A stretch of 64,000 bases of DNA, taken from contig NC_042998.1 of assembly GCF_006345805.1 (NCBI RefSeq), forward strand, positions 61,442,001 through 61,506,000, read 5' to 3'. Made by a program: the position numbers and the translations under genes. Below the pieces are notes generated by a model. That model was given only the letters and a program-made list of their open reading frames with translations, was not told the DNA's origin and did no database searches. This DNA comes from Octopus sinensis (taxonomy: Eukaryota). Below are positions 915 to 51,658 of this stretch, piece after piece. Numbering within the stretch: position 1 is the stretch's first letter; the number at the start of each line of letters is the position of its first letter.

Positions 915-3900
915 CTGTAATTATAGAGAGAAGATCAACAAAATTTGCATAAGATCAATTGAAAAATCTTTGATTTAATTTAACTCAAGAATCATGTGTA
1001 TGAATGTATATGAATGTATATATGTATGCATGAATGTATGTATATGTGTAGATTTATATGTTTTATTTAATGCATGTCTTCTCATAAATATAATTGCTTA
1101 TCTAGACATGCTCATATATATTTAAATGATAAACTTCTAGAAACTTTTACAGATATTTACAGTTCAAGTGATGGACTGGATCTGTAGTCTTCAAATTAGC
1201 TTTCTCCTTTCTGATTTTGATTTCTCAGAATTGGTTTTAGGCAGTGTGTTACATATCCCAGTGCCCCAATAATCACAGGTATTACCCTGAACTTGTAATC
1301 TGGATAGAGTAACTGCAGATTTCTCAATAGTTCAGCATATTTATATGTGTCATAATTCGGTTTATTTATTCATTCCGTAAGCTCGCAAGGAACGAAGCCA
1401 GTATGCTCTGATGGATGTGTAATGTCAGTGTGCATACTCGACAGAGTGTAAGTACCTTGAGAGAAAAGCTGGACCTAAGAACATCAGATGTAGTGTGCAA
1501 GAGAGACGACTGCACTGGTATGGTGATGTGGCAAGAATGGATGAGGATTGATGTGTGAAAAAGTGCCACACCCTAGCAGTTGAGGGAACCTGTGGAAGAG
1601 GTAGAACCAGGAAGACCTGGGATGAGGTGATGTAGCACGACTTTCAAAAATTAGGCCTCACCGAGGTAATGACTAGTGACCGAAACCTTTAGAAATATGC
1701 AGTGCGAGAAAAGATCTGGCAAGCCAACTTTCCTTCATTGGACACTAAACTCTGCCTGCGAAGACCTGTTGAGGCAAGTGAAATCAAATCAAATTCACAA
1801 ATTCGATGACTGGTACCCATGCCAGTGGAGCGCTAAGTGCACCATCCAAGCGTGATCGCTGCCAGAGCAGCTGATTGACTTCCGTGCCGGTGGCACATAA
1901 AAAACACCATTCGAGCGTGATCATTACCAGCGTCGCCATACTGGCACTTGTGCCGGTGGCACGTTAAAAAGTATTCAAACGAGGTCGTTGCCAGTGCCGC
2001 TAGACTGGCTCCTGTGCAGGTGGCAGGTAAAAAAATCACCACTTGAGCGTGGCTGTTGCCAGTACTTCCTGACTGGCCCTCGTATCGGTGGCACGTTAAA
2101 GCACACACTACACTCTCGGAGTCGTTGGCGTTAGGAAGGGCATCCAGCTGTAGAAACTCTGCTAGGTCAGATTGGAGCCTGGTGCAGCCATCTGGTTTGC
2201 CAGACCTCAGTCAAATCATCCAACCCATGCTAGCATGGAAAGTGGACGTTAAACGATGGTGATGATGATGATGATTCAAGTTATTTCAAGATTTCTTGCC
2301 AATAGCTTCTAACCAAGATCCAAGGCTCTTTCATTGGAATTTCAATATCATCAACAGAGTATTTTGTATGTATGTATGTATGTATTTATGTATGTGCAGA
2401 TTTTTATAATTTAGGTATGAATTCTCATGCATATAGTTGAATGTCTAGACATGCTCATATATATTTAAATGATAAACTTCTGGAAAGTTTTACTGATTTT
2501 TATAGTTCCAGTGATGGATTGGATCCGTAGTCTTAGAATTAGCTTTCTCCTTTCTAGTTTTGAGAAACCTGATATCTCAAGATTGATATTTAGGCAGTGT
2601 TTTACATATCCCAGGGCCCCAATAATTACAGATATGAGCCTGAACTTGTAATCTGGATGGAGCAACTGCAGATTTGTATGTGTGTATGTATGTATGTATG
2701 GATGGATGGATGGATGGATGGATAAAGATTTGTATGTTTTGTTTTAGGTATGTATTCTCAAGCATATAGTTGCATATCTAGACATGCTCATATGCATTTA
2801 AATGATAAACTTCTGGAAAGTTTTACAGGTGTGTGTGTGTATGTACGTATGTATGTATGTATGTATGTATGTATGTATGTATGTATGTATGCATGCATGT
2901 ATGAATGTGTGTGTGTATGTATGTATGTACAGAGTGTTCAGGCTAAATTTGTTTGCATAAAAGGTAAAGAAACCGCAATATCCCATTGAAAACGAAAATT
3001 ATTTTAAAAAATAAAATGCTCCAACTAGATTATGGCTGGTAGATAACAGTTTACTCAGAGTAGCCACGCTCAGCTTCCAGTGTGGGCTCAAGACAGCTCC
3101 AGAACCTGGCGATGTGTTCCTCACTCTGCCCCTCTAAAAATCCTTGAAGGCGTCCTTGATCATGGCTACCACTTACGTGAATGCAGCCTTGACAATGACA
3201 AAACACAATACCTGAAAATAATTGCTTTAACCCAATAAGATTTAAAGAAATGTATCACTATTTATTGTCAAGTTTTAAACCAACTATTGTGAATTTGAAA
3301 ATATCTTTTTATAAAGTGTTTGATTTTCTTATAAACAAAGAACTTTGATATGCTTACATGTTAGTTAGGCTGGAGAGGAATAAGAAAGCACCATCTTCAT
3401 ACCCTTGTATTTGGTTATTGCTCATATTTCTGAAAGAAAGAAATAGATAAATATTATGTATGTTAAAATCAGTAAAAGGCAATAAAGCTGTTTTCTCCAG
3501 TTTGTAAGTGTTGAAAGTTTTTTTAAGTCCCCACTGACTCAGTAAATTCTCACGAACATGGGGCAGTTCTTTATTTTTCTGTATGATTCTCCGGTGTATT
3601 TTGGAAAGGGTTGAATACATCAATCTGACTTGGATGTGCTAATGAAAACAAAACTCTTTTGTGAAGTCCCAATAACACAATAAAGAGCAAAATATAATAC
3701 AAGTAAAAACCACAACAAAGTTGAAGATGCCAGCTGAGCAAAGAAGGATGTTTAAAAAGCTTGGTTTTGGAAACAAGCCTCCCTTTTTGCACAGGTGATA
3801 CACTGAGACACAAAAAGTTGCATCAAAAACAGTAAATAAAAACGTTTAAGCCTAAGTTGTGGAAGGTTTAGGAGTTAATCTGGATGCTGACTTAAGATTA

Positions 3901-51658: not shown

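Follow-up and report, generated by a model that had tools for sequence, protein, structure and literature searches.

A 20-exon leucine-rich repeat array in an octopus adhesion GPCR gene, with inherited change in repeat number and possible repeat skipping

A 64,000-nucleotide stretch of the Octopus sinensis genome (the window, G000:C2:61442001-61506000, to which all positions below are relative unless a contig is named) carries 20 leucine-rich repeat (LRR) exons in a row. Our preferred reading, which we hold to be probable rather than secure, is that these exons form the LRR arm of an adhesion GPCR, one repeat each, and that the array has grown and shrunk through inherited duplication and deletion. 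The default transcript would join all 20 exons in order, with in-frame skipping likely adding some shorter forms, and unequal crossing-over between homologous introns would set the repeat number. If a one-base shortfall in the exon for TM1 (described below) is an assembly error, the receptor would bind its partner by the concave LRR face and signal via its GAIN/7TM part. The gene family is published, a 72-bp phase-2 LRR exon is known elsewhere, and the junction pattern alone is ordinary. For octopus adhesion GPCRs, a germline change in LRR number (20, 17 or none) and isoform models that drop whole repeats both appear to be undescribed; a literature search on octopus and cephalopod LRR receptors, which took in mostly papers outside subscription, returned no account of how these genes are divided into exons or spliced.

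We scanned both strands for AG-[exon]-GT units with an LRR motif. The minus strand yielded 20 such exons between 51658 and 3358, each exactly 72 nt long (Table 1); four extra rows of 60-75 nt were non-LRR and were dropped. The scan reproduced every part of the description in the sequence-only reading from which we started, namely 20 symmetric 72-nt exons, all phase 2-2, 19 of them ending in TT (exon 20, at 3358-3429, ends in AT) and all beginning with A (17 exons) or G (three). Donors are GTAAGT in 16 cases, GTGAGT in two and GTAAGC in two, and the introns of the array measure 285 to 6526 nt. Against the 20 exons of the real window, 29 of 30 shuffles gave none and the remaining shuffle gave one. 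Each of the 20 exon peptides has a Pfam LRR_8 match (E<=1). From exon 1 to exon 20 the first residues of the repeats read D-W-S-Y-H-W-S-Y-H-W-S-Y-H-W-S-Y-H-Y-S-N, and exon 20 is an outlier, identical to the remaining exons at 31-39 of 72 nt. The 20 exons and the LRR-CT cap have consensus splice sites and are free of stops. Pseudo-exons concealed in the array were rejected after a scan of 264 kb, in which no further LRR exons were found.

Table 1. Positions of the LRR exons, the cap exon and the duplicated blocks
Feature	Positions	Strand	Basis
LRR exon 1, D class, 72 nt, phase 2-2	51587..51658	-	exon scan
LRR exon 2, W class	51147..51218	-	exon scan
LRR exon 3, S class	50116..50187	-	exon scan
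LRR exon 4, Y class	49735..49806	-	exon scan
LRR exon 5, H class; 70/72 identical to exon 9	44844..44915	-	exon scan + pairwise identity
LRR exon 6, W class; identical to exon 14	42701..42772	-	exon scan + pairwise identity
LRR exon 7, S class; 67/72 to exon 15	40922..40993	-	exon scan + pairwise identity
LRR exon 8, Y class; 68/72 to exon 16	40565..40636	-	exon scan + pairwise identity
LRR exon 9, H class	37990..38061	-	exon scan
LRR exon 10, W class; contig depths suggest two exits from donor	36628..36699	-	scan + depth
LRR exon 11, S class; contig cover stops at exon edge, 3/4 runs	34599..34670	-	scan + depth
LRR exon 12, Y class	33819..33890	-	exon scan + contig depth
LRR exon 13, H class	32790..32861	-	exon scan
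LRR exon 14, W class	28067..28138	-	exon scan
LRR exon 15, S class	26363..26434	-	exon scan
LRR exon 16, Y class	19765..19836	-	exon scan
LRR exon 17, H class	16662..16733	-	exon scan
LRR exon 18, Y class	11896..11967	-	exon scan
LRR exon 19, S class	6141..6212	-	exon scan
LRR exon 20, divergent final repeat, ends AT	3358..3429	-	exon scan + identity
LRR-CT cap exon, first base T	757..914	-	flanking DNA + join computation
Duplicated block with exon 5, 95% identical to 37097-38383 (exon 9)	43951..45230	.	self-comparison
Duplicated block with exons 6-8, copy of 17515-29169 pieces (exons 14-16), 87-92%	38513..43952	.	self-comparison

The introns contain other elements. Long ORFs in intron 15 (22811-25711) are, we presume, reverse-transcriptase-like, and an ORF in intron 17 (13073-13810) is one that we take to be transposase-like. 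Exons 1-4 are surrounded by an inverted pair of 1.1-kb element fragments (45960-47048 and 57033-58121), and inverted repeats with 134-nt arms lie near exon 19 (6329-6598, 75%) and near exon 16 (20205-20720, 99%).

The flanking DNA places the array within a larger gene. A signal-peptide/LRR-NT exon lies at 70028-69838, 18 kb upstream of exon 1; 3' of the cap (914-757) come a Cys-rich module, another module, GAIN/GPS exons and 7TM exons (TM1-7), extending to about -83000. Chained in order, the signal exon, the 20 LRR exons and the cap are stop-free, and their first 596 residues are identical to the public model P0003 (LOC115224769, 1566 aa), which we found through the GPS exon. Pfam assigns to P0003 a GPS (PF01825, E 3.9e-13), a 7tm_2 domain (PF00002, E 2.3e-12) and LRR, with no ROC-COR GTPase domain among its 11 families. 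The O. bimaculoides orthologue also has a Death domain by Pfam, and its entry A0A0L8FLR8 (P0007) sits in the list of octopus-specific adhesion GPCR group 3 given within PMC6408891. A longer model of that orthologue, P0006, is 74-83% identical to our gene, depending on the domain, and the top Foldseek matches of the orthologue model (mean pLDDT 56) are the GPR126 ectodomain and the GAIN domains of CD97 and BAI3. By its predicted domains, then, the gene is an LRR-GAIN/GPS-7TM adhesion GPCR of octopus-specific group 3, an identity that the sequence-only reading had missed, along with the cap exon. What we take to be an HL-T-type motif is present in the GPS; autoproteolysis and G-protein signalling are predictions. 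For the modules downstream of the cap we use the labels three-finger/LU-like and SEA-like, which we assume from Cys pattern and predicted secondary structure; a structure-atlas search of the Cys-rich and the next module gave no usable match, and the LRR-CT exon folded by itself yielded an unusable model (pLDDT 45.5). The exon for TM5-7 of this family matches more than 30 places in the G000 assembly, a count that is a floor. The cytoplasmic tail is lengthened by a 36-nt phase 1-1 exon that recurs 11 times, always identical, on a 2.74-kb tandem repeat (-94148 to -121559); one copy has an altered donor, and the orthologue has a different repeat there.

The manner in which the exons join is regular. 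Leu is rebuilt at each of the 210 forward joins that the signal-peptide exon and the 20 LRR exons allow, and every exon is phase 2-2, which bears out the claim that any subset of exons stays in frame. The stronger claim of full interchangeability stands for the Leu joins among exons and meets a limit at the T-starting cap, where only exon 20 gives Ile and the 20 other possible joins give Phe. A further proposal, that the TT-A/G pattern is a design for combinatorial use, did not survive comparison with the rest of the family. In seven paralogous regions all 87 of the 72-nt exons start with A or G (7 of 94 rows, of 69 or 75 nt, having been removed), and their ends are TT in 46, CT in 21, AT in 19 and GT in one. 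After a CT or AT end a pyrimidine start would be silent, and the purine at first looked like an extra constraint. All 94 distinct exons of the family have a purine as the junction base, as against 92 of 94 with a purine at the end of the internal Leu21 codon (mostly TTA). Because that internal codon carries the same purine bias, the TT-A/G join needs no special cause, and we rejected selection for interchangeability as the reason for the purine start. The join is, as far as codon comparison indicates, an inherited split Leu codon that reflects ancestry and conservation of Leu.

Comparison of the available copies makes it evident that repeat number has changed in the germline, with 20 repeats here, 17 in the orthologue model and none in a neighbouring copy, a change that the sequence-only reading did not pick up. 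Exon 5 with its introns is a copy of the exon 9 region, and exons 6-8 are a copy of exons 14-16 (Table 1). The two copied pieces meet at about 43951, and such a chimeric block fits an 8-exon duplication that would have been followed by a 4-exon loss. The O. bimaculoides model P0006, a predicted one, lacks the exon 5-8 block and has one additional early repeat. The neighbouring copy is inverted (106754-127574, plus strand, in pieces 91-96% identical) and joins 60607 to 2276 inside a microsatellite, a 58-kb deletion that leaves it with no repeat exons. Within the array a four-exon register is visible, with identities of 0.73, 0.76 and 0.69 at offsets of 4, 8 and 12 exons versus about 0.64; either recombination bias or selection could produce it.

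Other features of these copies deserve mention. The inverted copy has a stop in the exon after its cap and an assembly gap just past it, and the O. vulgaris model P0004 is closer to its cap exon than to that of our gene. Between the gene and the inverted copy lies an exon-like stretch on the minus strand (84682-84392), in which we believe we recognize a CAF1/PARN-type nuclease motif. Elsewhere, at G000:C27:9514896-9552493, an LRR array is built of three blocks, each with six to seven exons and nearly identical to the others, which reflects either the amplification of a block in very recent time or a repeat in the assembly.

Owing to the symmetry of the exons, a transcript that lacks some of them stays in frame and would not be removed by decay; skipping would thus be tolerated. 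Isoform models of paralogues offer a view of whether it occurs. Two of the 20 clusters that we looked up are one-gene isoform sets differing by whole 24-aa repeats, and the other isoform pairs compared differ elsewhere. The paralogue on contig C9 has one 1208-aa model and five 1184-aa models (all predicted), each of the latter minus one repeat; in a comparison of adjacent exons, three of the five skip junctions can be explained by look-alike neighbours and two cannot. For the paralogue on contig C25, six models (all predicted, being isoforms other than X1, X2 and X6) skip 2, 2, 3, 3, 4 and 4 exons. Set against the 45 canonical junctions of four copies, of a family in which more near-identical copies exist, two of these junctions differ at 7 or more of 60 nt, two at 4-5 and two at only 2. 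Taken together, 4 of the 11 paralogue skip junctions are robust to mis-mapping, 5 are mimickable and 2 are intermediate; at the gene under study, near-identical exon pairs could mimic 6 of 171 possible skips. In-frame repeat skipping in octopus adhesion GPCRs is partly supported by these predicted models.

For the gene itself, P0003 is single in its cluster, and this one public model includes all 20 repeats. In so far as a predicted model can speak to it, this agrees with the sequence-only reading, which took full inclusion as the default. A search for shorter relatives returned no transcript-derived protein of this gene in the best 120 of 222 matches. We also considered contigs of four runs over 5.35 kb with exons 10-13 and most of exon 9 (32700-38050); among the runs listed none is on record as RNA, and an RNA origin of these contigs is at best presumed. 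In three of the four runs the contigs cover exons 10-12 and leave the intron bins 33953-34489 and 34848-35026 empty; run X9 has no exon-shaped cover and run X1 has no such cover on exon 9, and neither was counted as evidence. In X1 and X3 the depth over exon 11 equals that over exon 12, and X13 has additional depth on exon 12. The contig data, whose joint listings are taken up by SINE matches, display no joint between LRR exons, and full inclusion therefore rests on the predicted model.

At exon 10 the contigs give a hint of something more. Rounded-bin arithmetic indicates that a contig breaks off where this exon meets its donor, and the residual depth fits a second contig that covers the exon's last 30 nt plus 2 nt (11.9, 12.0 and 11.7 nt, 10 of them in the exon), which carries 29, 45 and 39% of the depth in three of the four runs. 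The only exons that start with GT, like the intron, are 2, 6 and 14. The signal would agree with splicing of exon 10 straight to exon 14, and equally with a haplotype difference or a back-splice. The suggestion that skipping yields receptors of variable length is thus made plausible by the paralogue isoform models and the exon 10 depths, while the sole model of the gene keeps all 20 repeats.

If skipping occurs, it could be more than tolerated. Splicing of the array may be regulated and selected, with cells building a receptor repertoire from subsets of repeats, as proposed for brown-algal ROCO genes; we regard this as a possible but unlikely account. The exon 10 second-exit share of 29-45%, if it reflects splicing, is large for skipping that is merely tolerated, and depth in three of four runs fits a second contig leading from exon 10 into GT-starting sequence (exon 14, 6 or 2). 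Leu at every one of the 210 forward joins is also in keeping with such use, as are the C25 junctions that stand apart from all 45 canonical ones checked (two of six) and the C9 single skips that go beyond look-alike neighbours (two of five). Counter to this, the gene has a single public model, the exon 10 signal may have the other origins just named, and seven of the paralogue junctions are mimickable or intermediate, in a comparison that took in only four near-identical C25-type copies.

Patterns of substitution at the locus also argue against a selected repertoire. Within repeat classes the concave-face pN of 0-0.36 lies below the background pS of 0.38-0.48 (uncorrected values from non-independent pairs), and LRR identity to the orthologue model P0006, at 274/360 (76%) over 15 of 17 repeats (one unpaired repeat and one with an indel left out), is within the range of the other domains. 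On both grounds we rejected a hypervariable binding face at this locus. In C25-type paralogues the concave pN is 0.40 versus a pS of 0.07, and 0.51 versus 0.18 (again uncorrected, from non-independent pairs). In that subfamily (G000:C25:23347864-23381419; copies C9761, C10451, C8846 and C5) two exon classes are near-constant save at concave positions, and the C25 array includes one 74-nt exon and one truncated exon.

Less probable still, in our judgement, is that the gene copy is in decay or yields an ectodomain that is released, in which case a frame break just past the GPS would end the protein ahead of its membrane part and repeat variation would reflect relaxed constraint. The TM1 exon (-61731 to -61827) has 97 nt where 98 would keep the frame, the GPS exon is followed by a weak donor, GTTGGT, and the Death domain ends after about 39 residues (about -139100 to -139200). 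P0003 leaves out TM1-2, the four O. vulgaris models P0001, P0002, P0004 and P0008 all pass over the TM1 exon, and the members of the four recent exon pairs are separated by 8 non-synonymous and 3 synonymous differences. From the TM1 shortfall and the short Death domain, the copy may fall short of an intact receptor. Arguing against decay, the missing base falls in a T-run, which is typical of long-read error, and other contigs have lost bases from T-runs in a similar way; the 20 exons and cap remain open with consensus splice sites, and the orthologue model is intact.

The analogies drawn by the sequence-only reading, to Dscam-like mutually exclusive choice and to VLR-like somatic cassette assembly, have a modular look in their favour and a predicted LRR fold that resembles VLRs among many other LRR proteins, but they are already largely refuted and we consider them very improbable: the public and orthologue models chain all repeats and exons 11 and 12 are equally deep in two of four runs, contrary to a one-exon-per-mRNA rule; exact 10-mers of a docking/selector kind are shared by at most 3 of 20 flanks, compared with 3-5 in four control stretches; and the germline gene, far from incomplete, has its whole spliced frame in line, with no LRR exons in reserve in the 264 kb. 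The two shortest introns do measure 285 and 309 nt, as claimed, and would not impose steric exclusion.

Dscam and the agnathan VLRs (PMC13428168) share with this gene repeated interchangeable modules, and differ from it in that it has neither a mutual-exclusion signal nor an incomplete germline gene. The closer analogue would be brown-algal ROCO genes with alternative splicing. ROCO proteins are LRR-ROC-COR GTPases, whereas this gene would encode a GAIN/7TM receptor without ROC-COR. Shuffling of brown-algal ROCO LRR exons was reportedly described by Zambounis et al. In passages of Teng et al. (2024, PMC11378527), ROCO genes have 72-bp phase-2 exons of one LRR each and splice variants with differing repeat combinations; one such exon per LRR is common to them and to this gene (20 of 20). 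Diversifying selection on the concave face, reported for ROCO in the same passages, is absent within classes here and present in C25-type paralogues. Among GPCRs, gonadotropin receptors have phase-2 LRR exons, as cited in part of PMC11378527, and LGR5 has delta5 and delta8 exon-lacking variants, according to passages of PMC10470845. Like this gene, they have a GPCR ectodomain of exon-sized LRR repeats; they are not known to have undergone recent array growth of the kind seen here. We take these receptors to be rhodopsin-class, whereas this gene has 7tm_2 and GPS.

The nearest published system is the octopus-specific expansion of adhesion GPCRs, group 3 (Ritschard et al. 2019, PMC6408891). The passages concerned describe a tandem expansion and include A0A0L8FLR8, with LRR, GPS, 7tm_2 and Death domains, and they report expression of the group in axial nerve cord, suckers, skin and gills. 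Those passages are silent on the one-exon-per-repeat structure and the change in repeat number seen at this locus, and the string 'splic' is absent from the main text.

It is in this family that the array may matter. Skipped repeats would vary the binding surface of the receptor; if skipping is regulated, the cell surfaces of octopus skin, suckers and nerve cord would gain diversity from it, in a way open to direct testing. Speculatively, and we think this rather unlikely, the one-exon LRR cassettes of more than 30 octopus adhesion GPCR genes may be shuffled in the germline and then joined in different combinations in individual cells, so that cells of skin, sucker, nerve cord or gill would carry distinct recognition surfaces. 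If true, such a cassette repertoire would act through G-protein or Death-domain signalling. It would parallel in an animal the ROCO shuffling of brown algae and add a third route to those of Dscam and the protocadherins.
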